Source: a virus
IMG/VR virus record: IMGVR_UViG_3300005805_000050
Span: 32,001 to 96,000 of that record
DNA: 64,000 bases
Direction: 5' to 3' (one strand)
Shown piece after piece: positions 1 to 64,000 of the stretch; position 1 is the stretch's first letter, and the number at the start of each line of letters is the position of its first letter. Position numbers and translations under genes: made by a program. The notes beneath the pieces were generated by a model. That model made no database searches, was not told the origin of the DNA, and worked only from the letters and a program-made list of their open reading frames with translations.

Positions 1-234
1 GATTACGATACATTTGCAATAGCGTTGTTAGATAAAGACGGTAACGACGCATATAGACAAGACGCAGATAAAAACGAAATAGACTCCATAATCAGATTGG
101 ATCCCAATGATCAGTTTGTTCATGTTTGGAGAGAGTACGAAAGCACACAATTACCACACAGCTGGAGAGTTTGGCCTCACAGCGAATCTAAAGGCTGGAT
201 GGAAAGAATAGAAAACGTTATAAAATATGAGTAA
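1..234 (+). CDS. 5'-truncated CDS; C-terminus of a probable paralog of the downstream GlcNAc-transferase-like protein
   Basis: Frame 1 is open from base 1 (DYDTFAIALLDKDG...). Its end (IALLDKDG...WPHSESKGWMERIE) parallels the end of 227..1495 (IAFDDENG...WAHHPEKGWCERYE). Confidence 0.7.
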   Translation, partial: DYDTFAIALLDKDGNDAYRQDADKNEIDSIIRLDPNDQFVHVWREYESTQLPHSWRVWPHSESKGWMERIENVIKYE

Positions 235-1495
235 AAAAGAGACCATACTATTGCATTTACCAGCGTATAGGGATCCAGAATTGATTCCTACCATAAAAGA
301 CGCCATAGACAAAGCAAAGTATCCAAAGAGATTGCGCTTTGGAATCTGTAGACAGTACCACCCCGATGATAAGTTTGATGATTTAACTGAGTATAAGAAG
401 GATAAGCGCTTTAAGATTTACGAATGCTTATACACAGAGGCCAAAGGTCTTCCGTGGGCGAGAGCTATAATCAATGAGAAGTTGTTAACTAACGAAGATT
501 ATATATGTCAATTAGATTCTCATCACAGATTTGCGCAGGATTGGGATGAGACTCTCATAGAAATGCACAAGGAATTGGAGCAAAAAGGACATAAGAAGCC
601 TATCATAGCGGGATATTCTCCGCTGTACGATCCCTTCAATGACCCCGCAGGAAGATCAATGGAACCGTGGCAATCCCAGTTCGTATGCTTTTATCCTCAC
701 GGCACAATATTCATTAGACCTGGATTGTTACACGGATATCAAGAGATGACTGAACCCCCTATGTCTAGGTTTTTGTGTGGTCATTTTGACTTTGCAAGAA
801 GCGAATGGGCAAGAGAGATAAAACACGATCCAGATATTTACTTTAGCGGAGAAGAGATCAATCTTACTGTTAGATCCTATACTCACGGATACGATTTCTT
901 TCATCCTCACAAAATTGTTGTTTGGCACTCTACTATGAGAGAAGAGCGAGCCGGCAAATTGAAGTGGGATGATGACGCAAAACTAGGAGTAGATTGGTAC
1001 AATAAACAAGAGTACGCTAGAAGAAAAATACGTTGCCTATTCAGAGTAGAGAGTGGAATAGATTTAACAGGTTACGACTTAGGAACCGTTAGAACTTTAC
1101 GTGATTACGAAAAATATGCAGGCGTAGATTTCAAAAGACGCGCAGTACAAAAGTATACTATAGAAAACAAATATCCTCCAAATCCTCAAATAGAAGATCA
1201 AGAGTTGTGGGAGCAATCGTTTATGGAATCATTCTACTTTTTAGTAGATGTGCACAGATCGCAATTTAAGGAGGAGAATTATAACTTTGTATTGATAGCA
1301 TTTGACGATGAAAACGGAAAATCTGTCAACAGTAAATTCATAGACGATTATCGATTACAAGCATTTAATGAAGGTAGAAACATACACTACGAAGAGTTCT
1401 TTTTAACAGACAAAAAAATTCATAGAGTTGTTTATTGGGCCCACCACCCAGAAAAGGGATGGTGCGAAAGATATGAACACGTTATTGCAAAATGA
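227..1495 (+). CDS. Glycosyltransferase (GlcNAc), Gnt1/GT60-like
   Basis: Motifs PAYRDPEL..TI, LRFGICRQ, QLDSHHRFAQDWD, FLCGHFDFA and YFSGEEI...VRSYTHGYD match the Skp1 hydroxyproline GlcNAc-transferase family. Confidence 0.8.
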   Translation: MSKKETILLHLPAYRDPELIPTIKDAIDKAKYPKRLRFGICRQYHPDDKFDDLTEYKKDKRFKIYECLYTEAKGLPWARAIINEKLLTNEDYICQLDSHHRFAQDWDETLIEMHKELEQKGHKKPIIAGYSPLYDPFNDPAGRSMEPWQSQFVCFYPHGTIFIRPGLLHGYQEMTEPPMSRFLCGHFDFARSEWAREIKHDPDIYFSGEEINLTVRSYTHGYDFFHPHKIVVWHSTMREERAGKLKWDDDAKLGVDWYNKQEYARRKIRCLFRVESGIDLTGYDLGTVRTLRDYEKYAGVDFKRRAVQKYTIENKYPPNPQIEDQELWEQSFMESFYFLVDVHRSQFKEENYNFVLIAFDDENGKSVNSKFIDDYRLQAFNEGRNIHYEEFFLTDKKIHRVVYWAHHPEKGWCERYEHVIAK

Positions 1496-2469
1496 CACTG
1501 AATTTTTGGTTTCATTACTCTCTTGATAAGGAGCAAAAGTACACCTTTACTGTTGCTTCAAAATTGCTATTTGATCATTATAAAGAAACGTATCCTGAAA
1601 TAGATTGGACACTCACTCCAGAATTTTTGAACAATCAGCAATATAGAGATGCTTATGGATATATCCCCTCCGCTCATGATATAAAAGACATAGATCGTAG
1701 GCTAGCCAAATTCGTATACAATCAACCCAATTACCAAACCACCATAATAGAAAATCCAGATAACGGAAAGTATATATTGATATGCTATTGGGACAAGGCC
1801 AGTAAATATGTTTCTAAACTACCGGATGTTGAAAATATGGTTCAGTTTCTACCGGCTGTTGGCGTACACGATAATGATTTCAATTATAAAGACTTTGGTA
1901 TACCATATACACCGATTTCTAAATGCACGTTTTTCCTGTCTAATGATTCATCTATAGACAAACACAAAGATAATCCAAAACGAACAGTATTGAGCAAACC
2001 GTATTATAGGGGATGCTCATATGGAATGAAACGTTGGACATCGATGTACGATTCTAGATTTGATATGAGATGTGAAGGCATACTTCCAGAAGAGTTTGTA
2101 GAAGAGATGAGTCAATCTGCAATAAATGTAGATTTCAACTGCGTAGCAGAGCCATCAGATAGAACAAATATTGCTATGGGATTGGGAACCGCATTGATTC
2201 GACCCAAATTAACAATACAGTATAAGAATCAGCTAATTCCTGATTACCATTACGCCGAAGTCAAATATGATTTGAACAATATTAGGGGGGAAGATAGTTA
2301 TAAACACTTGGCCGAAGCGTATCTAGACAGATATGAAGACGTCAAAAAAGACAGAGATTTTATGGTGTTTTTGTCCGAAAACGGTAGAAAATACTACGAA
2401 CAAAACGATACGTTAGAATCTCATATTCAAATTTTGAAAGACACCATCAATTTAGATCTATTAAAGTAG
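1492..2469 (+). CDS. Putative glycosyltransferase (GT-B-like C-terminal domain), paralog 1
   Basis: 325 aa ORF in the GT cluster. C-terminal PYYRG, INVDFNC..AMGLGTALIRP and LIPDYHYAEV resemble GT90/Glyco_trans_1-like donor-binding domains. Confidence 0.5.
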   Translation: MTLNFWFHYSLDKEQKYTFTVASKLLFDHYKETYPEIDWTLTPEFLNNQQYRDAYGYIPSAHDIKDIDRRLAKFVYNQPNYQTTIIENPDNGKYILICYWDKASKYVSKLPDVENMVQFLPAVGVHDNDFNYKDFGIPYTPISKCTFFLSNDSSIDKHKDNPKRTVLSKPYYRGCSYGMKRWTSMYDSRFDMRCEGILPEEFVEEMSQSAINVDFNCVAEPSDRTNIAMGLGTALIRPKLTIQYKNQLIPDYHYAEVKYDLNNIRGEDSYKHLAEAYLDRYEDVKKDRDFMVFLSENGRKYYEQNDTLESHIQILKDTINLDLLK

Positions 2470-2473
2470 TTAT

Positions 2474-3499
2474 ATGACGATAAATTTTTGGCACGACTAC
2501 GAACACAAAGAGGATACGTACTTCTTCTCAGCGGCATCAAGTAAACTATTTGATTACTATGTAAAAAAATATCCGGAGATAAACTTTCAAAAGAAGAAGT
2601 ATATGAATCCGGATGTGGTATTTGGAAAAAATTGGTACGAGTGTTATGATATGTTCATAGATAACGATCCTACGCGGGTAAAATTTTTGGACAATCAATG
2701 CAGCTATCAAACCACCATCATAGAAAACGAAGAGACGGGTAAATTTATAGTCTATAGTTTTTGGGACAAAGCCAGTGTACACTACTTGCAATTCGCTCCG
2801 GACATAGAAAATATACAGCAGTTTCTTCCTGCTTGCGGAACTCATTATAGTGATGTGACTTATAATGAAACTGACTATCTATATTGTCGAGGTATGCAGT
2901 ATAAAATAATTGACGAAATCATCAACTATACCCCAATATCCAGAGGCCCATTTTTTCTACAGGATCAAATTGTTAACGAGATATACGATGATAGGCACAA
3001 AGATCGATCTGTACTAGATAAACCATATTTTAGAGGCGGAGTTTATGGACTTAGAGCGTATTTGTTAGGTCTAAATAAAGACATCCCAATGGATGAAAGA
3101 TTTGATATTCGAGGCGAGACCATTCCTCTTAGGGACTTTTTAATAGAGATGAACAAATCAGCTATAAACATAGACTTAGATTGTGTAGCTGGTGTGTCTT
3201 CTAGAACTGTGGATGCTATGGGATTAGGCACAGCCCTAATAAGAACGGCTCCTAAAGTAAGATACTACAAACCTTTGATTCCAAATTATCATTACGCAGA
3301 GGTGAAGTGCAATAATCTAGCGGATGTAAAAACTCTAGCAGACGCATTCATAGACACTTATGAATACGTTAAAAAAGATAAAGACTATATACAGTATCTT
3401 TCACAGAACGCAAAAAAATACTATGAAGAAAACAATACACTAAAAGCTCATGTAGAAATTTTAACCAAAGTAATAAATTTTGAATCACTACTAAAATAA
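2474..3499 (+). CDS. Putative glycosyltransferase, paralog 2 of 1492..2469
   Basis: Shares MT[LI]NFW, YQTTIIEN, WDKAS, AMGLGTALIR and LIP[DN]YHYAEVK with the upstream ORF. Confidence 0.5.
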   Translation: MTINFWHDYEHKEDTYFFSAASSKLFDYYVKKYPEINFQKKKYMNPDVVFGKNWYECYDMFIDNDPTRVKFLDNQCSYQTTIIENEETGKFIVYSFWDKASVHYLQFAPDIENIQQFLPACGTHYSDVTYNETDYLYCRGMQYKIIDEIINYTPISRGPFFLQDQIVNEIYDDRHKDRSVLDKPYFRGGVYGLRAYLLGLNKDIPMDERFDIRGETIPLRDFLIEMNKSAINIDLDCVAGVSSRTVDAMGLGTALIRTAPKVRYYKPLIPNYHYAEVKCNNLADVKTLADAFIDTYEYVKKDKDYIQYLSQNAKKYYEENNTLKAHVEILTKVINFESLLK

Positions 3500-3500
3500 T

Positions 3501-4670
3501 ATGTTCGCATTTAACCTATTCGGTCCAGCTCTAAAGTACAGATTAGACGTATTCGATCACTGCTCGGGAAAAACGAGCGACTACGTGATGATTTTGACTG
3601 ATAAAGAATCTTACAAGTTCTATAAAGACTATCATCACAAGTACAAATTCGTATTCGTAGAAGACGTAGAGAATAGATCAGAAATCAGCATCAATCACGA
3701 GATATTACCTAATGTATTCAAAGACGAAAGCGATCAAATAAAGAATTTGAAAGGTTTTTACGAGAGTAAAGATGCGGCTTTTCCGTTTGAAATACAGAGG
3801 TATATCATGTATTATATGATGAAGGAGAACATAAACAACTACTGCATAGTGGATTGTGATACGATTTTAGTCAACGATAAAGATCGCGTAAAGAGGTTCT
3901 TTGATAGTATACCAGTAAGAAGCGTATATGCTCCACACTACGGATGGGAAACTAGTGGGATACATCAAAAAAACCACTTTTGGAATAAAGTGCGAGAAAG
4001 GGCAGGCCTTGATATAGACTTGCAAATAAACGCAGACTTCTTAAATCCTGACGGAACCGTTAATAGGGACGTAGTGAACCCTGACGAATACGCATGGGAT
4101 CATAAGTTATTTTTACAAAATAGAGTAGGATCATTCAACGATGGATACATGAGAGGTTTTCATTTTGAGAGCAAAGAACATCAAGATCTCTTCTATAAAA
4201 TCTGGAACGCAGCAACAGATCACTTACTAGAGCAGAGATGCATAGTAGCTCCCGAAAAAAGAGACGGCATGCAACTTCTAGACATGTCTGAAAGACGACA
4301 ATTTTGGTCTCCTGAATTTGTAACATCGAATCTAATGTACTTCTTCACAAAGCTATTTAACTACAAGTTTGAAATGAGAATTTGTGGAGCGGGAGACGCA
4401 TATGTTTACGATGCGAACATGGAAAATCCATATGGGTATACACCTAATCTAGTGTGTCGCCATCGACCTCGTCCCGAAGACAACCTATACTCAGGAAATT
4501 TGAACGGCCGCGGCGCTTGGCACAAGAGAACGTTTAATTACGACAAAACAGGAAGTTTTGTTGAATTTATACAGAACAATAGGGAAGAACTAGATACATA
4601 TTATAAAGAGTATCCTCCATTCATAACAGAAGTCACAGATACTCACGTTTTCAACAAATTAAGCGAATAG
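3501..4670 (+). CDS. Hypothetical protein, possible GT-A glycosyltransferase
   Basis: 389 aa ORF with a DxD motif after a hydrophobic strand (YCIVDCDTIL), located in the GT cluster. Confidence 0.4.
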   Translation: MFAFNLFGPALKYRLDVFDHCSGKTSDYVMILTDKESYKFYKDYHHKYKFVFVEDVENRSEISINHEILPNVFKDESDQIKNLKGFYESKDAAFPFEIQRYIMYYMMKENINNYCIVDCDTILVNDKDRVKRFFDSIPVRSVYAPHYGWETSGIHQKNHFWNKVRERAGLDIDLQINADFLNPDGTVNRDVVNPDEYAWDHKLFLQNRVGSFNDGYMRGFHFESKEHQDLFYKIWNAATDHLLEQRCIVAPEKRDGMQLLDMSERRQFWSPEFVTSNLMYFFTKLFNYKFEMRICGAGDAYVYDANMENPYGYTPNLVCRHRPRPEDNLYSGNLNGRGAWHKRTFNYDKTGSFVEFIQNNREELDTYYKEYPPFITEVTDTHVFNKLSE

Positions 4671-4673
4671 TCT

Positions 4674-5525
4674 ATGTTAAGTGAAAAACAGAAACACATT
4701 GATCGATTGCTGCATGAGCAATTGTTAGATTTCAATGTAATACATGGCCGTTGCATGTTTCCTGGCATAATTAGGAATAACATCGCAAACACCCCAATAA
4801 AAATTACAGATGACGTACAGATCATAACTGTGCTTAATACATCTCTAAGATACAACAATCCGTTAGCTAACATACAAAAAATAGATGGAAGACCTATAGA
4901 GTTCATAACTTACGAGGTATATCATAAGTGGTCTACAAAGCTAATAGGAATTGTGGATTACATACAGAGTAATTATGACAATTTACCAAATTACATAATG
5001 TATGTTGATGCGCTTGATGTCCTATTGTTGAAGGATCTATTAGATCCTCAAGAGATGTTGAATTACTACGGATGTAAAATGTTGTTTAATCATGAGGGTA
5101 ACTTTAGTCACACAGGTTGGCCTCCTCCAGAAAACACTGTAGATTATTGGGGAGAAGTTTACAAGACTACGCTACCCAAGTACATAGATTTGAATACTCA
5201 AAAGTATGGTGTAGGACATCAATGCGCTCTAAACGCGGGTGTATTCTTAGGAGAGAAGGCCTTCGTTCTTAAAGTAATAAAAGAGGCATTGGATACAATG
5301 AATGACGATCCTCAAAAAGGATATCCTTACGGATGTCCAGATGATCAAGTGTTGTTGAGACACTTTCATGTGAAATATTACGAAGACATTAGCATAGACT
5401 TATTCAATCGATACTTCTTATGGAGTCCACCAGGGGGAATAATACCTGATGAAGAAAATATCTTTTGTTTAGGATACGGAAGAAGGTACTTAGAGAGTTA
5501 CGAAAATATTAGAGCACAAAAATAA
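4674..5525 (+). CDS. PLOD/LH3-type glycosyltransferase-domain protein
   Basis: YIMYVDALDVLL, LFNHE, LNAGVFLG, DDQ and ISIDLFNRYF follow the motif order of the procollagen lysyl-hydroxylase GT domain. Confidence 0.65.
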   Translation: MLSEKQKHIDRLLHEQLLDFNVIHGRCMFPGIIRNNIANTPIKITDDVQIITVLNTSLRYNNPLANIQKIDGRPIEFITYEVYHKWSTKLIGIVDYIQSNYDNLPNYIMYVDALDVLLLKDLLDPQEMLNYYGCKMLFNHEGNFSHTGWPPPENTVDYWGEVYKTTLPKYIDLNTQKYGVGHQCALNAGVFLGEKAFVLKVIKEALDTMNDDPQKGYPYGCPDDQVLLRHFHVKYYEDISIDLFNRYFLWSPPGGIIPDEENIFCLGYGRRYLESYENIRAQK

Positions 5526-5529
5526 AACA

Positions 5530-7149
5530 ATGGCAACAATATCGTTTTACGGATCTCATAATGCGGCGTATGTAGTAGAGTCAGGGGGCAAAATCTTACT
5601 CGTATTAGAAGCTGAACGTTTCCTGAATTACAAGAATTCGGGCATCGCTCAGTATATGTGTCCGAAATCTACTGAAATTCTGTTTTTAGCGGAGTATATT
5701 CCTAGGTGGATAATGAGGAAACTGAATATCGACGAATTTGAGACTTGTTACTTTTCGAACACCGACGTCATAATGGATGAAAACAGGTTTAATCTACAAA
5801 AGACTATACCAGCAAAAAAATACGTTCAGTGTTTACACCACGAATCCCACGCAGGTGGATCATTTTATCAATCTTCCTTCAAAGAAGCCCTAATATTTTC
5901 ATTTGATGGAGGAGGAAACGATGGAAAGTTTTGTGTATACACGTGTAAGAGAGGCGAGTCTCCAAAACTACTAGAACAAGTACTAAATCCAAAATACAAC
6001 AATCCCCATATTCATTATGATCTAGGATTTCCGTATATGATATTCGCTCATTTCCTAAAAGACATAAAACAAGAGGATTTGGGTATGGGAAATTTAGTAT
6101 ATCCTGGAAAGTTGATGGGCTTATCGTCTTACGGAAACGTGATAGAAGAGTGGTTGCCGCACTTCATAGAATTCTACAAAGACAGTCCAGAGGGTTCTAA
6201 TTATTTGGAAAAAATAACAGCACTAGGAAATAAAATAGACGTTACCTTTGATGCTTCTAACAGGTTAGATGGACAACTAGCTTATGATATAGCCGCTACA
6301 AATCAAAGAGCATTTGAAGATTGCTTTTTAGAGATAGCAAAACCATACATGGAAAAATATCCTAACCTGCCTCTGTGTATCACCGGCGGATGTGGCTTAA
6401 ATATACTATTGAACACCAGATTAGTAAACGAATTCAATAAAGAGGTTCACGTAGGACCAGATCCAAACGATTGCGGTATAGCTTTAGGAATGATGCTAAA
6501 CAGCTTAAAGCCAAATGAAGCATACGATAGCACGTATTCAGGCACAAATCTATTAGATATAGACAGTTTAGGTACATACATACAAAATAGTGCGTTTTAC
6601 ACCAAAACTAGACGTGTTAATATTGAAAAACTTGCTAAAGACATAGAATCAGGTAAGATTATAGGTGTTGCTCGAGATCGCGCAGAACACGGACCTAGGG
6701 CTTTAGGAAATAGAAGCATAATATGTAATCCAATAATATCTAACATGAAAGAGGTGTTAAACGATAAGGTTAAGCACCGAGAGTGGTATAGACCTTTCGC
6801 GCCTGTGGTTAGATTAGAGGATGTAAATAAGTATTTCGAATGGAATAAAGAATCCAAGTGGATGAGTTTTTGTCCACAAGTTAAGGAAGAGTGGAAACTA
6901 AAACTACCATCGATAACGCATGTTGACGGCACAGCAAGGGTGCAAACAGTCACTAAAGAGCAGAACCCGTGGTTGTATGAACTATTGACCGAATTTGAAA
7001 AGCTCACAGGCGTGGGAGTATTATTGAATACATCGTTTAACGTAGACGGAAAACCCATATTGTCTACAATAAAAGACGCTTTCACTATACTAGAAAAAAC
7101 TCAATTAGACGGCTTAGTTATAGAAGAATATTACATAAAGAAAAATTGA
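5530..7149 (+). CDS. Carbamoyltransferase, NodU/CmcH family
   Basis: GSHNAA, EAERF, HHESHAG, FSFDGGG, GKLMGLSSYG, GGCGLN, NDCGIALG, EHGPRALGNRSI, KHREWYRPFAP, HVDGTARVQTV and LNTSFN. Confidence 0.95.
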   Translation: MATISFYGSHNAAYVVESGGKILLVLEAERFLNYKNSGIAQYMCPKSTEILFLAEYIPRWIMRKLNIDEFETCYFSNTDVIMDENRFNLQKTIPAKKYVQCLHHESHAGGSFYQSSFKEALIFSFDGGGNDGKFCVYTCKRGESPKLLEQVLNPKYNNPHIHYDLGFPYMIFAHFLKDIKQEDLGMGNLVYPGKLMGLSSYGNVIEEWLPHFIEFYKDSPEGSNYLEKITALGNKIDVTFDASNRLDGQLAYDIAATNQRAFEDCFLEIAKPYMEKYPNLPLCITGGCGLNILLNTRLVNEFNKEVHVGPDPNDCGIALGMMLNSLKPNEAYDSTYSGTNLLDIDSLGTYIQNSAFYTKTRRVNIEKLAKDIESGKIIGVARDRAEHGPRALGNRSIICNPIISNMKEVLNDKVKHREWYRPFAPVVRLEDVNKYFEWNKESKWMSFCPQVKEEWKLKLPSITHVDGTARVQTVTKEQNPWLYELLTEFEKLTGVGVLLNTSFNVDGKPILSTIKDAFTILEKTQLDGLVIEEYYIKKN

Positions 7150-7150: not shown

Positions 7151-8962
7151 ATGGCGGATTTAGAAAACATGGATGAAATCTTAAACCTATTGAAGGACCT
7201 GTCCAAAGAAAATTTGGATAGTGTTTTAAGTATGGCTAGATCTCTAAAGAAAAACAAAATGGAAATACAAAACAAGGAACTAACTCTAGTTACGGGATTG
7301 TGGAACATCAATAGACCAGGCCGTGATTTTTCTCACTACATAGAACACTTCAAAAAGTTCTTAGAGATACCTGTCAACATGTTTATATACATACCAAAGG
7401 AATACGAATATTTGGTGTGGGAAAAGAGAGATAGAGAAACCACATATGTAAAAAATTACGAACTACAAGACATAAAATCCTTATACGCTCCGTTCTGGGA
7501 CAAGACTCAGGCAATAAGAACAAATCACGAGTGGTTAAATCAAACCGGGGAGCAAGGTTGGTTAAAGGCTTCTCCACAGGCGGCTTTAGAGTGGTACAAT
7601 CCTATAGTGCAGTCTAAGATGTTTATGCTTAGCGACGCATCCATATGGGATCCGTTCTCCAGTGAGTATTTCTTGTGGTTAGATGCGGGAATTACTAATA
7701 CCGTGTGGGAAAACTATTTCATAAAAGATAGAGTTCTAGACAAGATCAATAAGCATTTGGACACGTTTCTATTCTTATCGTATCCTTATGAAACTAAAGA
7801 TGAGATTCATGGATTTAGAAAATCCGAAATGGATAGAATGTCTGGTAGAGATGTAAAATACGTTTGTAGAGGAGGACTTTTTGGAGGGAGAAAATCTCTT
7901 ATAAGGGATGCAAACGCAGAGTATTACGCTTTACTAGATTCCTCAATATCTAGAGGATTCATGGGAACAGAAGAGAGCATATTCAGCATAATGTCGTATT
8001 TGAACCCCTATAACTATAGGAGATACGAGTTGGATGCTAATGGGCTTATTGTCAAGTATATTCAGAACTTATTACAAGACACCGCAGAACTGTGTCCAAA
8101 ACCAGAACAGAATTATAAAATCAAAAATAACAATCCGCAAATAGCTGGACTCAAAACGTCTTTATACATGCTGACGTTTAATTTTCCTGAACAGGTGGAA
8201 TACACGCTTAATACATTTATGCAAAATTCTGCGGATTGGCTGGGAAAAACCAGGAAGATACTGATAGACAATTCTACTAACGATGAAGCTAGAATTAAAA
8301 ATCGAGAGATTGCCGATAAGTGGGGATTTGAACACATAATAAGAAACGAAAACACTGGCATAAATGGAGGCAGACTATTCGCAGCAGAACACTTCGATGC
8401 CTCCGACTCAGACTACTACTTCTTCTTCGAAGACGACATGGGATTACATCCTAACACCGAAGTGGGATATTGTAGAAACGGTTTTAGAAAGTATGTACCA
8501 AATCTGTACGATAATTTGCATAAGATTATGGTAAGAGAGGGATTTGACTTTCTAAAATTCTCATTTACAGAGGTGTACATGGACAATCACATACAAGTAT
8601 CCTGGTATAACGTGCCTCAAACTGTTAGAACAAGAGATTTCCCAGACTACGATAAGTTACCAATTACGGGCATGGATCCTAATACTCCAAGAACCAAGTT
8701 TGAAAACATAGACGTATTTGATGGATTAGCATACATAACAGGAAATGTGTACTATGCAAACTGGCCAACTATAGTTAGTCGAGAAGGCAACAAAAAGATG
8801 TTCTTGACGACCAAGTGGGAAAAACCTTACGAACAAACTTGGATGTCCTATATGTATCAACAGTACTTAGAAGGAAAAATAAAACCAGCTGTACTCCTAG
8901 CCTCGCCAGTAAATCATAATAGAATATCGCATTACAAACCAGAAGATAGACGAGAGAATTGA
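7151..8962 (+). CDS. HtrL/YibB (WlaTC)-like domain fused to a C-terminal GT-A-like domain
   Basis: N-terminal half has TLVTGLWNI, WLDAGI and GGLFGG (HtrL-like). C-terminal half has ILIDNST and YYFFFEDDM (GT2-like). Confidence 0.6.
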   Translation: MADLENMDEILNLLKDLSKENLDSVLSMARSLKKNKMEIQNKELTLVTGLWNINRPGRDFSHYIEHFKKFLEIPVNMFIYIPKEYEYLVWEKRDRETTYVKNYELQDIKSLYAPFWDKTQAIRTNHEWLNQTGEQGWLKASPQAALEWYNPIVQSKMFMLSDASIWDPFSSEYFLWLDAGITNTVWENYFIKDRVLDKINKHLDTFLFLSYPYETKDEIHGFRKSEMDRMSGRDVKYVCRGGLFGGRKSLIRDANAEYYALLDSSISRGFMGTEESIFSIMSYLNPYNYRRYELDANGLIVKYIQNLLQDTAELCPKPEQNYKIKNNNPQIAGLKTSLYMLTFNFPEQVEYTLNTFMQNSADWLGKTRKILIDNSTNDEARIKNREIADKWGFEHIIRNENTGINGGRLFAAEHFDASDSDYYFFFEDDMGLHPNTEVGYCRNGFRKYVPNLYDNLHKIMVREGFDFLKFSFTEVYMDNHIQVSWYNVPQTVRTRDFPDYDKLPITGMDPNTPRTKFENIDVFDGLAYITGNVYYANWPTIVSREGNKKMFLTTKWEKPYEQTWMSYMYQQYLEGKIKPAVLLASPVNHNRISHYKPEDRREN

Positions 8963-8979: not shown

Positions 8980-8988
8980 ATATTTATA
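8980..8988 (+). promoter_or_regulatory. ATATTTATA putative late promoter
   Basis: Recurrent intergenic motif, 13 nt upstream of the 9002 start. Confidence 0.6.
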
Positions 8989-55227: not shown

Positions 55228-55807
55228 CACAGTCACAGTATTTGAAAATGAGATCGCAAAATTCTTTGGATCTAAATACGCCATAGCCACAGATAGTTGT
55301 ACTCACGGTATAGAACTGTGTTTACGATACACTAAAGCCGAGAGCATAGTGTGTCCAAAGAGAACTTATCTATCTGTGCCGTTTCTATCTCATAAGTTAG
55401 GAATAACACTAGCATGGAAAGATCAAGATTGGATGAACTACTATTACGTTACTCCTAGTGTCATCGACGCGGCTGTCTTATGGAAAAAAGACAGTTACTT
55501 ACCTAACACGTATATGTGTATAAGTTTTCAATACCAAAAACACCTATCATTAGGCCGAGGAGGTATCATATTAACTGATAATGAAGAAGCAGCAATTCAA
55601 TTGAAAAAGATGTCATACGATGGTAGAATACCAAATATTCCGTGGAGAGATCAAAACATTGACACGGTTGGATACCACTACTACATGACACCAGAAACGG
55701 CTCAATTGGGATTAGACAAATTACAAGCTGCAATAAATACTAAGCCAAAACAGTGGGTACCCACCGACTGGCCTGATTTAACAACCATGACTATATTTAA
55801 GCAATGA
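55217..55807 (+). CDS. Compact DegT/DnrJ-family PLP aminotransferase (196 aa)
   Basis: ATDSCTHG, IDAA, SFQYQKHL.LGRGG.ILTD and GYHYYM. Confidence 0.75.
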   Translation: MNFNTVTVFENEIAKFFGSKYAIATDSCTHGIELCLRYTKAESIVCPKRTYLSVPFLSHKLGITLAWKDQDWMNYYYVTPSVIDAAVLWKKDSYLPNTYMCISFQYQKHLSLGRGGIILTDNEEAAIQLKKMSYDGRIPNIPWRDQNIDTVGYHYYMTPETAQLGLDKLQAAINTKPKQWVPTDWPDLTTMTIFKQ

Positions 55808-56779: not shown

Positions 56780-57808
56780 ATGTTAACAGTTAATATGTTC
56801 GATAGGGGTTGCGCTCACATGTTCAATGGACAATACATGGATCCGTATCAAACTCCGTCTAAACGTATTAACGAAAAGATAAAGTGGATAAAACACCCCA
56901 CCAAAAATCAAGGCTTGGAAAAATGGGAAGGCATAACGGTAGTTGTAGACTCTTGGATACTGGAGGTGGGAGAAGATTTTTCCAGAAGCAATTTAATCAG
57001 TCGAGTAGATACGAAACACAAGATAGGAATACTCATAGAACCCATGTACACTCAAGCCTCGGAGTTAGAACACAATGTGTACATTAAAAATTTTGATGCT
57101 ATAAAAAATCACTATGATTTCATACTCACATGGAATTCATACTTGTTGAAAAAATATCCTGATCATACTAGACTTTGTCCCGCTGCTTACACGTGGGTAA
57201 AAAAGGAAAACATAGGTGTTCATAAGAAGACTAAAAATGTGTCTATGATATATTCGTACAAACAAGCTTACGAAGGTCATCTGATTAGACACTCTGTCGC
57301 AGAACACTATCAAAAGAAATACGATAGTTGGTTCGATGATATTAGACACGACTCTGTGAAACATACAGGAATATCAATGCAATTTCCGGAAATCGATCTA
57401 TACGGCACAGGGCAAAAAAATAGAGACGGCAGCATAAATTGGCAGAAGAGTCCTTACAGCAAACCCAATCAATTTTTACATGATAAAGAAGACGCATTGA
57501 AGGACTATCGTTTTTCTGTGGTCATAGAAAATGTAAACATCGACAACGGATTTACTGAAAAGTTTATAGACTGTTTGTTAACGGGCACTGTACCCATTTA
57601 TTGGGGAGTGGAGAATATAGGTGACTTCTTTGACATTAGAGGCATAGTGCAAGTTAAGAGCAAAGAAGATATAGTAAACGCAATTGATAATTTGACTGAG
57701 GAAGATTACGTACGAATGTTGCCTTACGTCAAACTTAATTTTCAAGAGGCTATGAAATACGAGTACTTTGAAAATTCTGTCTACGAAAACATAAAACACC
57801 TGATATGA
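56780..57808 (+). CDS. GT10-like glycosyltransferase
   Basis: YRFSVVIEN..FTEKFIDCLLTGTVPIYWG. Confidence 0.75.
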   Translation: MLTVNMFDRGCAHMFNGQYMDPYQTPSKRINEKIKWIKHPTKNQGLEKWEGITVVVDSWILEVGEDFSRSNLISRVDTKHKIGILIEPMYTQASELEHNVYIKNFDAIKNHYDFILTWNSYLLKKYPDHTRLCPAAYTWVKKENIGVHKKTKNVSMIYSYKQAYEGHLIRHSVAEHYQKKYDSWFDDIRHDSVKHTGISMQFPEIDLYGTGQKNRDGSINWQKSPYSKPNQFLHDKEDALKDYRFSVVIENVNIDNGFTEKFIDCLLTGTVPIYWGVENIGDFFDIRGIVQVKSKEDIVNAIDNLTEEDYVRMLPYVKLNFQEAMKYEYFENSVYENIKHLI

Positions 57809-58791
57809 AGATAGCATTTCTTACAGAGATGGGATTTAGAGGCAAGATACCTCACGATCACCCAAACATGAGGACTGAGTTTGCTTGGATGCATGCTATG
57901 GACGCAGAGCACAGAGATATAAGATACTACAAAGACCTACACGATTTTGATCACGTATTCATCATATTCCCTAAAGGGCGTTTATACTTATCCGCAGAAG
58001 GAAGCAAGATAAAGAACGATCACAACCCAGTATCAGATTTGCTATCAGCAAACATAATAGATCATTTGAAATCTAGAAACAAGAGAGTTTATTACATACA
58101 AGAAGGTCCATCTTGGTGGTTCAATGATTACGAGATTTACGACCAGATTCACTTCTTCAACTTACTTACTCAAGTGGATGCCATATTTTGTCACAATGAA
58201 AGCGACAAATCGTTTTATCAAGGTTTGGTAGGTACAAATAAAGTTCACGTGATGAGGTCACTGATGATAGATGACCAACTCAAATCTATACAGTCTAATA
58301 TAGAAGATAAGTGCATAATAGGGGGAAACTTCTCTCGTTGGTACGGAGGTTTTCAAAGTTACATGGTAGCGCAGCACTTTGAATTACCTATATGGGCTCA
58401 AACATCCCACTCAACGAGAGATTACGAAGATCAAATGGTGAATCACCTTCCTAGACTTCTGTGGAAAGATTGGATGCAAGCACTAAGTGGTTTCAAATTT
58501 GCAGTACACCTCATGCCAACAGTCGCAGCCGGAACATTCAGTTTGAATTGCGCCTATTTTGGTATACCATGCATAGGAAATGAGAGAGTAGACACACAAA
58601 AGATTTGCCACCCAGAATTATCTGTAGATGTCGAAGATGTCAAGAAAGCAAAAGACTTGGCCATAAAACTAAAGAGGGACCAATCATTCTATAATCATTG
58701 TAGCAAACTAGCCACTCAAAATTACGAAAAATACTATCGCATAGATTTTTTTAAGTCAGAAATTTTTAGTATATTACAACAATATGAGTAA
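57805..58791 (+). CDS. Putative GT-B glycosyltransferase
   Basis: 328 aa; C-terminal VHLMPTVAAGTFSLNCAYFGIPCIG; cluster context. Confidence 0.55.
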   Translation: MKIAFLTEMGFRGKIPHDHPNMRTEFAWMHAMDAEHRDIRYYKDLHDFDHVFIIFPKGRLYLSAEGSKIKNDHNPVSDLLSANIIDHLKSRNKRVYYIQEGPSWWFNDYEIYDQIHFFNLLTQVDAIFCHNESDKSFYQGLVGTNKVHVMRSLMIDDQLKSIQSNIEDKCIIGGNFSRWYGGFQSYMVAQHFELPIWAQTSHSTRDYEDQMVNHLPRLLWKDWMQALSGFKFAVHLMPTVAAGTFSLNCAYFGIPCIGNERVDTQKICHPELSVDVEDVKKAKDLAIKLKRDQSFYNHCSKLATQNYEKYYRIDFFKSEIFSILQQYE

Positions 58792-59644
58792 GGTATCTGT
58801 CTTTGGTGGATATGGGTTTATAGGAGGAAGGTACTCTGATATGTATTCCGATCAAGTGATAAGGATACACAGAGATCATCATGAACCTTCTACTAAAGAT
58901 ATACTGTATTTTATAAGTACCATAGATAACTATCACATACACGACAACATTCACATAGACGTTGACACTAATTTGACTGTGTTATTGAATGTGTTAGATA
59001 ACGTTAAGAAGAATTACACAGAGAAGGACAAACCAACCATAAATTTCATAAGCTCATGGTTTGTGTACGGCAAGAATAACAACATTCCATTTAGTGAGGA
59101 CTCTTACTGCAATCCCACAGGTTTCTATTCCATCACGAAGAGATGCGCTGAACAGCTATTGATTTGTTTCTGTGAAACTTTTGGGTATAACTATAGAATA
59201 ATCAGATTAGCGAATGTCATAGGAGAAGGCGATACGAAGATCTCTAAAAAGAAAAACGCCCTACAATTCTTTGTAAAGGAGATAGTTCGTAATAGAGACG
59301 TAGATCTGTATTACGGAGGAGATGTGTATAGAGATTACATATACGTGGACGATGTGTGTAGAGCCATAAATCTAATCTTACAAAAGGGTGAATTGAACAC
59401 CATATATAATATAGGAAGCGGAAAACCCTACAAATTCTTGGACATGATAAACTTCGCTATAGACTACGCGAAGTCCAAATCCAAAATAAACGACATCCCA
59501 GCCACAAGATTTCACAATATAGTGCAAGTAAGGAATTCGTACTTAGACGTTCAAAAACTGAAATCTCTTGGATTTGAACCAAAGTATGATATCAACTCAG
59601 CCATAATGCAATTAGTAGATTTTTACAAGAGAACAAACAAATGA
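58784..59644 (+). CDS. NAD-dependent epimerase/dehydratase (extended SDR)
   Basis: GGYGFIG, ISSWFVYG, YSITK and RDYIYVDDV. Confidence 0.9.
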   Translation: MSKVSVFGGYGFIGGRYSDMYSDQVIRIHRDHHEPSTKDILYFISTIDNYHIHDNIHIDVDTNLTVLLNVLDNVKKNYTEKDKPTINFISSWFVYGKNNNIPFSEDSYCNPTGFYSITKRCAEQLLICFCETFGYNYRIIRLANVIGEGDTKISKKKNALQFFVKEIVRNRDVDLYYGGDVYRDYIYVDDVCRAINLILQKGELNTIYNIGSGKPYKFLDMINFAIDYAKSKSKINDIPATRFHNIVQVRNSYLDVQKLKSLGFEPKYDINSAIMQLVDFYKRTNK

Positions 59645-59648
59645 ACAC

Positions 59649-60611
59649 ATGAAAAAGATAGTATACGTAACTGGATGTTTTGGATTTATAGGATCCTACA
59701 TAACTAGAGAGTGCCTTAAACTGGGATGGTATGTGATGGGAATAGACAAGTGCACGTACGCCTCGAACGAGGAACTAATATGGGATCTCTCAGCTGAATA
59801 TCCCGACACATTCTCTTTTATAAGAGAAGACATCAACGATCTTAAGTTTTTGTACGAGTGCGATTATATCATAAACACTGCCGCAGAAACCCACGTAGGT
59901 AATTCAATAGTCGACAGCAAAGAGTTCATGCATTCGAATGTACACGGCGTGTATAACTTACTTGAGCTCATAAAAAAGTATAGATTAGAGACAAGCAAAA
60001 AACCCGCGCTCTTACACCTCTCTACTGACGAAGTGTATGGAGATATAGAAGACGGATCTCATGCAGAGACAGACATGTTGAGACCTTCGAATCCTTATTC
60101 TGCCACTAAAGCCGCCGCAGACATGTTGATATTGGCTTGGGCAAGAACATACGATCTGCCGTATGTCATAGTTAGGCCAACAAATAATTATGGAAAAGGC
60201 CAATACGTAGAGAAGTTAATACCAAAAACTTGTAAAATGTTACACTTAGGTAAAAGAATACCTCTACACAACAATGGCACCCCAACAAGAAACTGGTTGC
60301 ACGCATCAGACACCGCAGAAGCTGTGATAAAGATAATAGAGTCTGGCAAAACCAATGAGATATACAATATCTGCGGAGGATTTGAACAAACCAATTATGA
60401 CACTGTTAAGAAGATAATCCAAACTTACTATAAAGACGAAACAGTGGATGTCAATAACTACTTAGATCTGTCCTATAAGAGACCGGGTGTGGATGTGAGG
60501 TATGCATTGGACGATTCAAAGCTGAGATCTTTGGGTTGGGAACCCAAGAAAAAATTTGACGAAGAACTTTCAGAAATCGTTGATCACTATAAAAATAATT
60601 TCATATGGTAA
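59649..60611 (+). CDS. rfbB: dTDP-glucose 4,6-dehydratase-like
   Basis: TGCFGFIG, AAETHV.NS, STDEVYG, PSNPYSATKA, NNYG..Q..EKLIP and RPG.D.RY. Confidence 0.85.
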   Translation: MKKIVYVTGCFGFIGSYITRECLKLGWYVMGIDKCTYASNEELIWDLSAEYPDTFSFIREDINDLKFLYECDYIINTAAETHVGNSIVDSKEFMHSNVHGVYNLLELIKKYRLETSKKPALLHLSTDEVYGDIEDGSHAETDMLRPSNPYSATKAAADMLILAWARTYDLPYVIVRPTNNYGKGQYVEKLIPKTCKMLHLGKRIPLHNNGTPTRNWLHASDTAEAVIKIIESGKTNEIYNICGGFEQTNYDTVKKIIQTYYKDETVDVNNYLDLSYKRPGVDVRYALDDSKLRSLGWEPKKKFDEELSEIVDHYKNNFIW

Positions 60612-61219
60612 CGCCTGAGTACTCCGTAGACTGGTTTAGTTTACACATTCCCAATTGGGACAAATTGTTTGATTACTACCAACTAAGAGGCAAAAATAAC
60701 CTCAGATTCTTAGAGATAGGATGCTTTGAAGGCAGATCTACCAATTACCTTTTAGACAATATATTAACGGGGGAGGGATCTTCTATAGATGTTGTAGATA
60801 CTTTTGGAGGGTCTAGAGACGAGGCTGGTATGAATTGGGATATTGATTATGATTTCAATGCACTCTACAAAAAGTTTGTACATAATATATCAAATCACAA
60901 AGACAAGGTGCACATACACAAAGGACTGTCAGGAGACATACTTAAAAAGGATTTTGTACCTAATACGTTTGACTTCATTTATATAGACGGATCACATACG
61001 GCGTACGATGTGTTACAAGACGCCGTACTTGCACATCCGCTATTAAAATCAGGAGGCATATTGATGTTTGACGATTTTGGCTGGAAAGACCCTAATAACC
61101 TGCATCCCACAAATAGTCCTGAAATGGGTATAACGTGCTTTTACAACGCGTATGAAATTTTCTACGAACCTATATTTCAAGGCTATCAAATAGCACTTAT
61201 TAAAAAACAGCAGTTATGA
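60605..61219 (+). CDS. Class I SAM-dependent methyltransferase (Methyltransf_24-like)
   Basis: LEIGCFEGRS, FDFIYIDGSH and LKSGG..MFDD. Confidence 0.88.
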   Translation: MVTPEYSVDWFSLHIPNWDKLFDYYQLRGKNNLRFLEIGCFEGRSTNYLLDNILTGEGSSIDVVDTFGGSRDEAGMNWDIDYDFNALYKKFVHNISNHKDKVHIHKGLSGDILKKDFVPNTFDFIYIDGSHTAYDVLQDAVLAHPLLKSGGILMFDDFGWKDPNNLHPTNSPEMGITCFYNAYEIFYEPIFQGYQIALIKKQQL

Positions 61220-61842
61220 ATAAAGAAGATCTAATAAACTTCGAAGAGGAAATTGCCAAACTATTCAATGCGGGCAAAATAAAATCCCCTGTGCATCTTT
61301 ATAGTGGAAATGAAGATCAGATCATAGATGTATTTCAAGCTATCGACATAGAAAATGATTGGGTCTGTGCAACTTGGAGAAATCATTATCAAGCGTTATT
61401 AAAAGGAATTCCAAAAGATGTGATAAAAGATCACATCATTAGAGGAAAATCCATGGTTATGAATTTACCAGAATATAAATTTGTATGCAGTTCTATAGTT
61501 GGAGGAATATTCTCTATAGCTACTGGAATTGCTTATTCTATAAAATTACAAAACAAGAAAGAGAGAGTTTGGTGTTGGGCTGGAGATATGTCGGCAGAAA
61601 CTGGAGCTTTTCATGAAGCTTACAAGTACAGTAAAAATCACAACTTGCCAATTATATTCGTTGTGGAAGATAACATGAAATCAGTACTAACTCCCACTAA
61701 TGAAATATGGAAAAGAGATACTCCCTACTACTTAGACAAAGAATACTCTAATGGAGTGGTAAGACAACCCCATCTATACTATTATCAATACAACAATCAA
61801 AAATATCCACACGCTGGAGCTGGGCAAAGAGTACAATTTTAA
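61216..61842 (+). CDS. ThDP-dependent enzyme, E1-alpha-like subunit
   Basis: PVHLYSGNE, ATWRNH, SSIVGG and GD.SAETG.FHEA...FVVEDN. Confidence 0.88.
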   Translation: MNKEDLINFEEEIAKLFNAGKIKSPVHLYSGNEDQIIDVFQAIDIENDWVCATWRNHYQALLKGIPKDVIKDHIIRGKSMVMNLPEYKFVCSSIVGGIFSIATGIAYSIKLQNKKERVWCWAGDMSAETGAFHEAYKYSKNHNLPIIFVVEDNMKSVLTPTNEIWKRDTPYYLDKEYSNGVVRQPHLYYYQYNNQKYPHAGAGQRVQF

Positions 61843-61845
61843 CAT

Positions 61846-62382
61846 ATGAGATACTTCGAAGAATTGAAACGGGCCATGACAATGTTATCTGAAAATCCCA
61901 AAACGATTTTTATAGGACAAGCCGTAAAATATGCAGGAACAGGATTATACGACTCACTCTGCCACGTACCAGAAGAAAAAAGAATAGAATTGCCAGTAGC
62001 GGAATATCTGCAAGCTGGCCTAGCTAACGGGATGGCCATAGAAGGGTTAATACCCATATCAGTGTATCCCAGATGGAACTTTTTATTGATGGGAACCGAT
62101 CAAATCGTAAATCACCTTGATAAGTTTGATAGTGTGTCTGACGGTAAATGTAAACCTAAAGTTATAATTAGAGTTGCGGTTGGTAGTGAAAGACCCATAG
62201 ATCCTCAGTGTCAACACAAAGGTAACTTCTCATCAGCATTCAAATCGATGTGCAAAAACATAAATATAGTGGAACTCATAAACGCAGAGGACGTAGTTAG
62301 AGAGTACGAATGGGCTTTGAATAGACCCGACGGAAAGAGCACTATATTAGTGGAATACGCAGATTACGCGAAAGAAAAATAA
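61846..62382 (+). CDS. ThDP-dependent enzyme, E1-beta/transketolase pyrimidine-binding subunit (no C-terminal domain)
   Basis: FIGQAV, ELPVAE..QAG.ANGMA, DQIVNH and PQCQH; only 178 aa. Confidence 0.85.
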   Translation: MRYFEELKRAMTMLSENPKTIFIGQAVKYAGTGLYDSLCHVPEEKRIELPVAEYLQAGLANGMAIEGLIPISVYPRWNFLLMGTDQIVNHLDKFDSVSDGKCKPKVIIRVAVGSERPIDPQCQHKGNFSSAFKSMCKNINIVELINAEDVVREYEWALNRPDGKSTILVEYADYAKEK

Positions 62383-62411: not shown

Positions 62412-63173
62412 ATGAAATACTACGAAAAATCAAAATCAATTCCGGAATTATACTGTCCGGAAAAAACACTTAGTGAACTTGCGAATCATTATGAAACTGA
62501 CAAAGGCACTGCGGATTCTAAAACTTTGACTTGGGGATATTCTCACTCTGGACATTTTACCTGGGGATATACTGAAGTGTACGAAAAGTATATGAAACAT
62601 TTTAGAGACACTAAGGATCCTGTACAGTTTTTAGAAGTAGGCATTCTTGATGGTAGATTTCCTTTGGCTTCACCTAAAGTTTGGTTATCATATTTCAAAA
62701 ATCTAAATCTATACTGCATAGATAATTTTTGGGGCGCTCCTCCTAATGACGATATCGCAGCAGAAATATGTTCTCTAGGTGTCAACTTTTTCTACGCAGA
62801 TCAGGGATCTGAAGAACATTGGAATGAAATACAGAAACAAATTTCACAGCCGCTGGATTTTATAGTGGAAGACGGCAGTCATTGGCCTAATCACATGTTG
62901 TACACCTTGTGGAGAAGTATACCACTAATGAGGTCAGGAGGTTTCTATTTTATGGAAGATCTACAACATGAGACTACTCAAGGCGTGTATGGTTATAACA
63001 ATCACGATTTGTATCACTCAATGTTGAAATTCAAATCGACAGGGGTTTTTGAATCACAAATACTATCTTATGATATATGCAAAGACATAGAGTCGGCTTT
63101 TACCGTTACAGATATCCATTTAGGCGGACCTTCACACAATATCACAGTGCTTTGTGCACTACAAAAAAAATAA
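62412..63173 (+). CDS. SAM-dependent (sugar O-)methyltransferase-like protein
   Basis: ETDKG, YTEVYE, LEVGI, ADQG and FIVEDGSH follow the MycE/TylE-like pattern. Confidence 0.65.
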   Translation: MKYYEKSKSIPELYCPEKTLSELANHYETDKGTADSKTLTWGYSHSGHFTWGYTEVYEKYMKHFRDTKDPVQFLEVGILDGRFPLASPKVWLSYFKNLNLYCIDNFWGAPPNDDIAAEICSLGVNFFYADQGSEEHWNEIQKQISQPLDFIVEDGSHWPNHMLYTLWRSIPLMRSGGFYFMEDLQHETTQGVYGYNNHDLYHSMLKFKSTGVFESQILSYDICKDIESAFTVTDIHLGGPSHNITVLCALQKK

Positions 63174-63176
63174 CAT

Positions 63177-63977
63177 ATGAAGACGCGAGAATTCAAATGC
63201 GTAAAAATCCTCACCGATCTTATTGAGAGCGACGGCCTTATCGGGATAAAGACCAGTTTTGAAGACGAAGGCGCCATGTTCGATGAAACCATCAGACTCA
63301 AGGAAATCTGCAACCAAGCCAAGACAAAGGTAACTCTTAAGATAGGCGGGCCAGAGGCCATAAGAGACATCAAAGAGTCTTGTATTATAGGCGTTAAGGG
63401 ATTGGTGGCGCCCATGGTCGAATCCCCCTTTGGACTCAAGAAGTTCATTCAAGCTGTCAACAGTAATCTACCTAAGGACGTAGTGGATTCCCTACAGCTC
63501 AACGTAAACATAGAGACCATATCAGCGGCCAAGTCAGCTGATCAAATACTATCCATACCCGAGGCAAACCAACTTTACGGAGTTACTGTGGGCAGGGTAG
63601 ATTTGGTTTCCTCCATGGGAAAGGACAGAGCTTACGTGAACAGCGATGAAGTATTGTCCCTTGCGGAGAACGTTTTCACCTTCGCCAAAGAGAAGGGATT
63701 GAAGGCATGTTTGGGAGGCGCGGTTTCTACGGACTCTTATGAGTTCATCAAGAAGCTGCACTCTAAAAGGCTGTTGGACAAGTTTGAGACTCGTTACGCC
63801 ATCTTCGATCCTTCCATAGCGTTGAAGAATCTGTCTCGCGCCCTATCAAAAGCGCAGATGTTCGAGTACGAGTGGCTCATGGTTAAACACGAACACTACA
63901 CAGCTTACGCCAACCAAGACATTAAACGCATCAAAATGATCCAAGAGCGGATCAATCAATCGCTGAGTGTGGAATGA
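63177..63977 (+). CDS. HpcH/HpaI aldolase / citrate lyase family protein
   Basis: KIGGPEA, APMVES, NIET and VGRVDL..S. Confidence 0.75.
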   Translation: MKTREFKCVKILTDLIESDGLIGIKTSFEDEGAMFDETIRLKEICNQAKTKVTLKIGGPEAIRDIKESCIIGVKGLVAPMVESPFGLKKFIQAVNSNLPKDVVDSLQLNVNIETISAAKSADQILSIPEANQLYGVTVGRVDLVSSMGKDRAYVNSDEVLSLAENVFTFAKEKGLKACLGGAVSTDSYEFIKKLHSKRLLDKFETRYAIFDPSIALKNLSRALSKAQMFEYEWLMVKHEHYTAYANQDIKRIKMIQERINQSLSVE

Positions 63978-64000
63978 GGGTGCTCTTAACAGGCGGCAGT
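63974..64000 (+). CDS. Start of a 3'-truncated Rossmann-fold (SDR) enzyme
   Basis: ATGA overlap, then MRVLLTGGS, the opening of a TGGxGxxG motif. Confidence 0.7.

Follow-up and report, generated by a model that had tools for sequence, protein, structure and literature searches.

What a bacteriophage does with about 16 glycosyltransferase (GT) proteins is the question raised by the stretch of DNA studied here, namely bases 32001-96000 of a 122,086-bp IMG/VR virus record with a CheckV completeness of 75%. Two loci of this 64,000-nucleotide window are given over to glycan chemistry, together amounting to ~32 kb with the parts that lie outside it: locus 1, headed by genes of family GT60 and followed by the tail sheath gene, and locus 2, an island of GT and nucleotide-sugar genes. 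A preliminary description, made from the letters of the window, had seen in them a single, cytoplasmic and late-expressed system that builds a glycan on the virion. Glycosylation of the phage's own virion proteins is still the best reading, with roughly an even chance of being correct, and it is better supported for locus 1 than for locus 2. The solubility and cytoplasmic setting of the pathway, the place of locus 1 in the fibre/tail module, the GT60 family itself, a mucin-like neighbour and the Schiff-positive virions of phage XacN1 speak for it; the late expression is not supported.

Gene labels were checked with Pfam and NCBIfam, and nearly all those first proposed proved right at the positions given for them; a PLOD-like label fell, and both loci continue beyond the window, locus 1 upstream and locus 2 downstream. 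The relatives compared were G001 (183 kb, 100% complete), its companions G002 and G003 (the three being 95-100% complete) and the cultured phage immuto; in addition, IMG/VR was scanned with the GT60b protein of locus 1 as query, which gave 57 loci at 39-88% identity. The source is an uncultured T4-like phage of a Flavobacterium-phage lineage. A T4-type portal, an S77 prohead protease and a gp23-type capsid protein are encoded at the start of the record, and the relatives next in line are Microcystis phage Mel-JY01, Rhodothermus phage RM378 and an uncultured huge phage. The host is likely a member of the Bacteroidota, because of these phage relatives. Almost all genes of the record lie on the + strand, as do all its features located below, and coordinates are those of the window unless marked as genome coordinates.

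The GT60 cassette and its mucin-like neighbour

GT60 is a family of protein O-GlcNAc-transferases, that is, of protein-directed enzymes. Locus 1 opens with two tandem members, GT60a (genome 30978-32234, its 3' end at 1-234; PF11397 E 2.8e-72) and GT60b, a polypeptide-GlcNAc-transferase-family enzyme (227-1495; E 4e-49), which are 38% identical and score 245 and 168 bits, respectively, against a PF11397 cut-off of 21. GT60b has no hydrophobic or transmembrane segment, and a sequence search of the PDB with it gave no matches. Residues Q95, D97, S98 and H99 (Q-x-D-S-H) are invariant in 65 phage GT60 sequences, both paralogues included, and the DSH, or DxH-type metal/nucleotide-sugar, motif of GT60 is presumably the catalytic one.

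Directly 5' of GT60a (genome 24340-30894) lies a gene for a protein of 2184 aa which by its composition is a mucin-like Thr/Ser/Pro-repeat protein: Thr makes up 32%, Ser 18% (50% together) and Pro 9%, in hundreds of TISVTPT-type units set between small non-repeat domains. It is the sole ORF (open reading frame) of such composition among the 82 of at least 150 aa in the record, and, its repeats being just 70-82% alike in DNA, the gene is therefore not an assembly artefact. Upstream of it are encoded Ser/Thr-rich fibre-like proteins, a Gly-rich protein of the 'tail fibre assembly' type and a protein with an S74 fibre-chaperone domain; downstream follow the GT cassette and the sheath gene, the repeat gene being co-directional and tightly packed with its neighbours. 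Locus 1 thus sits between fibre genes and sheath, with GT genes inside the structural operon. A homologue of the repeat gene occupies the same position in G001, whose assembly breaks within it, and in the related locus L010.

The adjacency of GT60 to a repeat gene is not peculiar to the source phage. In at least 21 of the 45 loci with enough upstream DNA, GT60 is preceded within 2 kb by the end of an ORF rich in [ST]P[ST], the gap being as a rule 37-96 nt; such ORFs are 42 of the 600 ORFs of these loci. The repeat proteins are unrelated in their N- and C-terminal domains and differ in their repeat units, so that what recurs is a repeat beside GT60, not a single gene family. Far from the GT60 cassette, G001 has four more [ST]P[ST]-repeat genes, which form a second cluster on the minus strand (genome 119769-127120, L072-L073).

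The four ORFs that follow GT60b (1492-5525) had been described as PLOD-like; Pfam, phmmer against the PDB and a profile search gave no PLOD or 2-oxoglutarate-oxygenase signal for them, and the label is replaced by GT-B or GT-A-like transferases or by no assignment. The third gene of the cassette after GT60a and GT60b is o2 (1492-2469), 44% identical over its full length to its paralogue o3 and therefore probably sharing its fold. For o3 itself (2474-3499), a GT-B-fold glycosyltransferase is predicted from an AlphaFold2 (AF2) model (pLDDT 78, pTM 0.81) and Foldseek, the top matches of which (SdgB, POGLUT2, PimA, TarM and GtfA) have E values of ~2e-5 with TM-scores of only 0.4-0.5; the best structural matches are protein- and lipid-directed GT-B enzymes. 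As for o4 (3501-4670), an Atlas feature, structure neighbours at a TM-score of ~0.5 and a D-C-D motif provide a lead towards a GT-A enzyme, GT8 or nucleotide-diphospho-sugar-transferase-like. No Pfam or PDB match was obtained for o5 (4674-5525), which has a D-x-x-D stretch and a 50% homologue in L010 only. Then come a NodU/CmcH-type, NodU-like O-carbamoyltransferase (5530-7149; Carbam_trans_C E 3e-65, Carbam_trans_N E 4e-24), a two-domain HtrL/YibB and GT2 transferase recognised by Pfam (7151-8962) and the tail sheath (9592-11385; Phage_sheath_1, Phage_sheath_1C). The GT60-like, HtrL-GT and carbamoyltransferase genes first noticed upstream of the sheath are hence borne out.

The cassette has a conserved end in the HtrL/GT2 gene, which most of the 57 loci, as well as XacN1 and related phages, carry 3' of GT60. 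Across the loci the constant frame is GT60 followed by the HtrL/GT2 gene, and the genes in between vary; the o2-o5 block is missing from G001, the closest complete relative. The succession of GT60, carbamoyltransferase and HtrL/GT2 is common to XacN1, Xoo-sp13 and Stenotrophomonas jumbo phages, and the GT60 family as a whole counts more than 4000 metagenomic clusters at 90% identity, nearly all of them without a name.

Export genes were sought throughout. A hydropathy scan found no protein with five or more hydrophobic segments in the 122-kb record or in G001, and Polysacc_synt (Wzx; PF01943), Wzy_C (PF04932), Bac_transf, Glycos_transf_4 and ABC2_membrane (PF01061) are absent from the record, G001-G003 and immuto; control genomes did give matches to the export and initiating families. 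The lack of Wzx/Wzy, ABC exporter and initiating transferase noted for the window thus extends to the whole record, three relatives at least 95% complete and immuto, and a search of the rest of the record for a flippase, polymerase or ligase found none. This supports a soluble pathway for which neither the phage nor even its complete relatives encode export or lipid-carrier steps.

The cassette invites comparison with several known systems. Protist GT60 enzymes include the polypeptide alpha-GlcNAc-transferases of Dictyostelium and Trypanosoma cruzi, among them Gnt1 acting on Skp1, and initiate mucin-type O-GlcNAc chains. The phage enzymes share with them PF11397 and the DxH-type motif, have a Thr/Pro-rich acceptor-like repeat protein alongside, and in their soluble form resemble the cytoplasmic Gnt1; they differ in being encoded by a phage and operating in the bacterial cytoplasm, in a C-terminal region of ~120 extra aa, in their tandem arrangement and in their coupling to a carbamoyltransferase and HtrL/GT2, their donor and acceptor being predicted. 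To our knowledge, virion glycosylation by phage enzymes has been shown for mycobacteriophages only, and with few transferases. There, according to the account given in PMC12619734 of Freeman et al. 2023, two to three GTs modify the C-termini of capsid and tail-tube subunits. Phage GTs in a structural gene region (true of locus 1, not of locus 2) and a proposed action on phage proteins in the cytoplasm are common to both cases, whereas the ~16 GT proteins, the dedicated mucin-like candidate acceptor and the ~23 kb of sugar-nucleotide chemistry are particular to the present phage.

Along the same line, giant viruses glycosylate the chlorovirus Vp54 protein and, in the Megavirinae by means of clade-specific sugar clusters, their fibrils (PMC10117803, PMC9614988). 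Soluble virus-encoded GTs, nucleoside-diphosphate (NDP)-sugar pathways (Gmd, aminotransferase, acetyltransferase), clusters that vary between clades, products on fibrils (predicted in the phage) and a core GT4 nearest to chlorovirus B736L are points in common; the phage is in contrast a bacterial virus of ~160-180 kb with another initiating enzyme family and a chemistry predicted from its genes. XacN1 has, in its ORF334-ORF330 (PMC5852040), a homologous GT60 (34% identity), a carbamoyltransferase and HtrL/GT2 in one cassette, yet it belongs to an unrelated lineage and lacks both a large adjacent mucin-like gene (there are short Pro/Thr linkers in its ORF325) and the core GT4 of locus 2. Clusters of T4-like and jumbo cyanophages (PMC7824862, PMC12801897) likewise combine many GT families, GT10 and GT11 included, with epimerases, vary in content between relatives and are of predicted function; unlike the present loci, they often carry nucleotidyltransferases or kinases and are read as modifying the host surface, while here neither is found and a protein-directed initiator and a candidate acceptor are added.

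The sugar island of locus 2

Locus 2 runs from 46253 to genome 101398. Its first gene (46253-47701) encodes a retaining GT4 of GT-B fold and 482 aa (AF2 pLDDT 95), 62% identical to gp90 of immuto and belonging to the lineage core. Its nearest solved relative by both fold and profile is B736L of chlorovirus NY-2A (E 1.7e-23, vs 5e-13 for the best cellular enzyme), the top folds being B736L, HepE, MshA and PimB', and it has more than 8000 metagenomic clusters. The second protein of this conserved pair (47705-49000; 431 aa) is GT-B/GT4-like, with viral GT1/GT4 clusters as Atlas neighbours, a weak similarity to the 482-aa GT4 and 51% identity to gp91 of immuto, annotated as RfaG-like. The sizes of the two proteins had raised the possibility of a GtfA/GtfB-type pair; the fold search led to generic GT4s and B736L, not to GtfA/SdgB. 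The core is completed by a protein of 148 aa that weakly matches a CHC2 zinc ribbon (49438-49884; 63% identity in G001, 41% in immuto) and by a GT2 recognised by Pfam (49886-50509; 45% identical to immuto gp93).

These genes and those that follow agree, in Pfam and NCBIfam, with the set listed in the preliminary description (GT4, GT2, GT11, GT10-like, Gmd, RfbH, RmlB-like, aminotransferase-like, acyl- and methyltransferases, thiamine diphosphate (ThDP) enzymes and aldolase). An RfbH/E1-type NDP-4-keto-6-deoxyhexose 3-dehydrase (50506-51822; NF011936, 462 bits, above the equivalog cut-off of 423) is followed by a GT11 of the alpha-1,2-fucosyltransferase family (51825-52673; PF01531 E 2.4e-18) and a two-domain GT2 and GT10 transferase (52664-54310; Pfam). 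The interval 54312-55807 holds a WbuC cupin, a hexapeptide N-acetyltransferase (54721-55227) and a short DegT-like protein (55217-55807), the latter also present in immuto at 31% identity. Gmd, the GDP-mannose 4,6-dehydratase (55804-56775), matches PF16363 at E 2e-117 and TIGR01472 at 392 bits, slightly below the cut-off of 415. Next are a GT10-like transferase (56780-57808; Pfam) and a 328-aa protein (57805-58791), similar to an immuto gene annotated as mannosyltransferase, then a short epimerase/reductase of the short-chain dehydrogenase/reductase (SDR) type and an RmlB-like NDP-glucose 4,6-dehydratase (58784-60611, the dehydratase at 59649-60611). A methyltransferase (60605-61219; Methyltransf_24), a split ThDP pair similar to PDH-E1 alpha/beta (61216-62382), which is a candidate for two-carbon transfer to a keto-sugar, a methyltransferase paralogue (62412-63173) and an HpcH/HpaI-type aldolase (63177-63977; Pfam) bring the island to the window's end. 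From 63974 onwards and for ~5.4 kb past that end it continues with an SDR, an AroB-related cyclase, an acetolactate-synthase (ALS)-like ThDP enzyme, an epimerase and a GT2. The methyltransferase paralogue was recognised by BLASTP (E 1e-8) to a Methyltransf_24 protein at genome 14167; three paralogues of this type are thus present, one among head and fibre genes (genome 14167-14808) and two in locus 2.

From these genes the sugars may be sketched. Gmd with GT10 and GT11 suggests fucose-type 6-deoxyhexoses, and RfbH with the RmlB-like dehydratase a 3,6-dideoxyhexose; the ALS-like enzyme and the E1 alpha/beta-like pair, with the aldolase and the SDRs, point to C-branching or chain extension, the DegT-like, acetyltransferase and cupin proteins to an N-acetylated amino sugar, and the three Methyltransf_24-type proteins together with the carbamoyltransferase to further decoration. 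No Fer2 or FNR-type Pfam match that could represent the E3 reductase of the 3,6-dideoxyhexose pathway was found in locus 2, and PF00483, the sugar-1-phosphate nucleotidyltransferase, is absent from the genomes G000 and G001. The pathways must therefore begin from host NDP-sugars, and both of these enzymes would have to come from the host.

The core of locus 2 is syntenic in G001 and immuto, where a PD-(D/E)XK nuclease, a small ORF, the 482-aa GT4, the 431-aa GT-B-like protein, the 148-aa zinc-ribbon protein and GT2 follow one another. Beyond this GT2, all three phages have a variable middle, different in each, which is closed by an epimerase and the terminal GT2; the island is ~23 kb long in the source phage, ~22 kb in G001 and ~11 kb in immuto. 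The phages with the core GT4 are precisely those of the shared capsid lineage. GT60 was not found in immuto, though locus 2 is present there, and the Xanthomonas/Stenotrophomonas jumbo phages with the GT60 cassette are not among the core-GT4 matches. Because immuto has locus 2 without GT60, and XacN1 the GT60 cassette without the core GT4, the two loci are separable modules and not an obligate pair. The single two-locus system initially proposed is therefore not supported, and nothing links the sugars of locus 2 to the virion; a cooperation of both loci in the source phage is possible.

The destination of the glycan

If the phage glycosylates its own virion proteins, the enzymes of both modules would be soluble ones that act in the host cytoplasm on NDP-sugars made by the host. 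The first (genome 30978 to window 8962) would be a cassette for mucin-type protein O-glycosylation, in which GT60a and GT60b start chains on Thr/Ser of the 2184-aa protein encoded upstream, and the variable GT-B/GT-A transferases, the HtrL/GT2 enzyme and the O-carbamoyltransferase lengthen and decorate them. The second is a lineage core island with conserved flanks (the GT4 pair, GT2 and the terminal GT2) and a hypervariable middle, which holds several GTs of fucosyltransferase families and is predicted to provide GDP-6-deoxyhexose/fucose-type, 3,6-dideoxy, amino-acetylated and, probably, C-branched sugars. The glycan of this island would most likely end on phage proteins too, possibly on the same mucin-like fibre.

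XacN1 offers the nearest experimental parallel. Its virions show at least two Schiff-positive protein bands, ascribed by the authors to phage GTs including ORF334 (PMC5852040), and ORF334 is the GT60 homologue. Beside baseplate wedge genes and ~2.5 kb from the GT cassette, XacN1 encodes ORF325 (L078 371-10312), a protein of 3313 aa with short Pro/Thr linkers around aa 3085-3150. This protein is a possible GT60 acceptor in XacN1; as an adjacent mucin it was rejected, being not mucin-like overall and having such linkers near the C-terminus only.

Several points weigh against virion glycosylation. The Schiff-positive bands of XacN1 are without protein identity and without a tie to the GT60 cassette, and in the source phage and in immuto the glycan is a prediction drawn from genes. 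No match in cultured phages or PHROGs was obtained for any non-repeat part of the 2184-aa protein (N-terminal, middle or C-terminal), and gene position is therefore all that places it in the virion; about half of the related GT60 loci have no adjacent repeat protein. In immuto, which has locus 2 but neither GT60 nor mucin, the acceptor of locus 2 must be a different one. Lipid-linked intermediates of the host can be substrates of soluble GTs as well, and the promoter-like motif shared by both loci, described below, carries no timing information.

The capacity of such GTs to act on lipid-linked intermediates leads to a rather unlikely, though serious, alternative, namely that locus 2, and perhaps locus 1, remodels the host surface polysaccharide, for instance against superinfection, phage GTs acting on undecaprenyl-linked units that the host flippase, polymerase and ligase export. 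This is the published standard reading of similar polymorphic clusters in jumbo and T4-like cyanophages (PMC7824862, PMC12801897), RfbH, Gmd, GT11 and GT10 are typical of O-antigen loci, which the hypervariable content also resembles, and peripheral GTs require no transmembrane segment. Yet initiating, flipping, polymerising and ligating genes were not found in five genomes, the phage appears to be strictly lytic, locus 1 belongs to the fibre module, where it adjoins a self-encoded acceptor-like protein and is headed by a protein-directed GT family, and the XacN1 virions are glycoprotein-positive (PMC5852040). The last point, together with the location of the repeat gene between fibre genes and sheath, co-directional and tightly packed, and the same position of its homologue in G001 and L010, makes it doubtful as well that the Thr/Ser/Pro protein and its glycans act outside the virion, released at lysis or intracellularly as a decoy, matrix or protection of the infected cell, or that locus 2 makes a soluble glycoside. 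Such a role, which is less probable still than a change of the host surface, would fit the finding of no known virion-attachment domain in the repeat protein, the location of locus 2 among replication, nucleotide-metabolism and lysis-region genes instead of structural ones, and a shared motif that also drives non-structural genes.

Least probable, and indeed quite improbable, is that part of locus 2, chiefly the conserved GT4 pair near nucleotide-metabolism genes, glycosylates a modified cytosine of the phage DNA, as do T-even phages and the newer systems that place glycans on hydroxymethylcytosine (hmC). Lying 1.7 kb upstream, a short ThyA-family enzyme (43912-44547) has, when aligned to T4 dCMP hydroxymethylase and thymidylate synthase, Asp at the Asn177 position (N-D at the T4 Asp179 position), the Asp of dCMP hydroxymethylase that selects cytosine in T4; the enzyme may be either a hydroxymethylase or a methylase; the PD-(D/E)XK nuclease and the zinc-ribbon protein flank the GT4 pair, and phage GT-A and GT-B enzymes are known to place mono- to trisaccharides with unusual sugars on hmC (bioRxiv 10.1101/2023.12.21.572611). 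However, immuto has the same GT pair and island without a close Asp-type ThyA, and its DNA, analysed by liquid chromatography with UV and mass-spectrometric detection (LC-UV-MS), contains dA, canonical dC and dT, and fdPreQ1 in place of dG, no glycosyl-nucleoside being reported (bioRxiv 10.1101/2023.04.13.536721). G002 likewise retains the GT4 (58% identity) with just a faint ThyA match. The fold search of the core GT4 is headed by generic retaining GT4s and the chlorovirus GT, T4 alpha- and beta-GT not being among the top (T4 beta-GT is a weak fold match of o3 only, at rank 46), and some ten GTs with four sugar pathways go far beyond any known DNA glycan.

Virion glycosylation may be carried one step further, to the tentative proposal of a mucin that T4-like phages of aquatic habitats make for themselves, namely a fibre of Thr/Ser/Pro repeats, hundreds of nm long perhaps, made and glycosylated wholly in the bacterial cytoplasm by a GT60 start and the strain-variable fucosylated, dideoxy, C-branched and carbamoylated sugars of both loci. 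It would be a widespread phage counterpart of the fibril glycocalyces of giant viruses, but in this full form it has well below an even chance. If true, a self-encoded mucin, a protist-type initiator and a 23-kb hypervariable island would rank phages beside giant viruses as autonomous glycan builders, and the many GT and NDP-sugar clusters of aquatic phages that are still unexplained would gain a rationale open to testing. Possible benefits are adhesion, a larger encounter radius and shielding from proteases, grazers and host defences; the loci would also be a source of soluble enzymes for cytoplasmic O-glycosylation and rare-sugar synthesis. The cultured relatives immuto, XacN1 and Xoo-sp13 make the question directly testable.

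The promoter-like motif and neighbouring genes

Late expression had been deduced from a motif, ATATTTATA, found before both the tail genes and locus 2. It stands at 8980-8988, before small ORFs and the sheath gene, and at 46000-46008, before a 74-aa ORF and locus 2, and occurs 8 times in the window (1.5 expected), on the + strand only; the record has 16 copies, nearly always 4-37 nt 5' of a start codon. For its 8-mer core, ATATTTAT, 17 of 27 genomic copies fall inside the 4.5 kb of intergenic DNA, and since one core copy lies in the 83-nt gap 5' of GT60a, both loci have a copy of the core. The motif is found as well in front of the ribonucleotide reductase genes, the HSP20/GroES/GroEL genes and the SSB/UvsX/exonuclease/helicase block. 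The motif is accordingly a real phage-wide promoter-like signal and does precede tail genes and locus 2, but it marks neither tail nor late genes, so that late expression is not supported. The T4 late promoter TATAAATA was tried and showed no enrichment on the + strand; sigma-70-like sites and terminators within both loci are at shuffle level.

A megablast of the tail region against phage records returned no matches, and ARAGORN found no tRNA anywhere in the window. Genes for HSP20, GroES and GroEL are consecutive at 38419-41014, after a ATATTTATA motif, and immuto has GroES and GroEL at the same place. The most membrane-like protein of the record, of 112 aa and with ~4 hydrophobic segments (42351-42689), is holin-like by its position, and immuto has a holin in the syntenic region. 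Finally, dUTPase, dCMP deaminase and the Asp-type ThyA lie at 43004-44547, and the phage may carry a modified cytosine.

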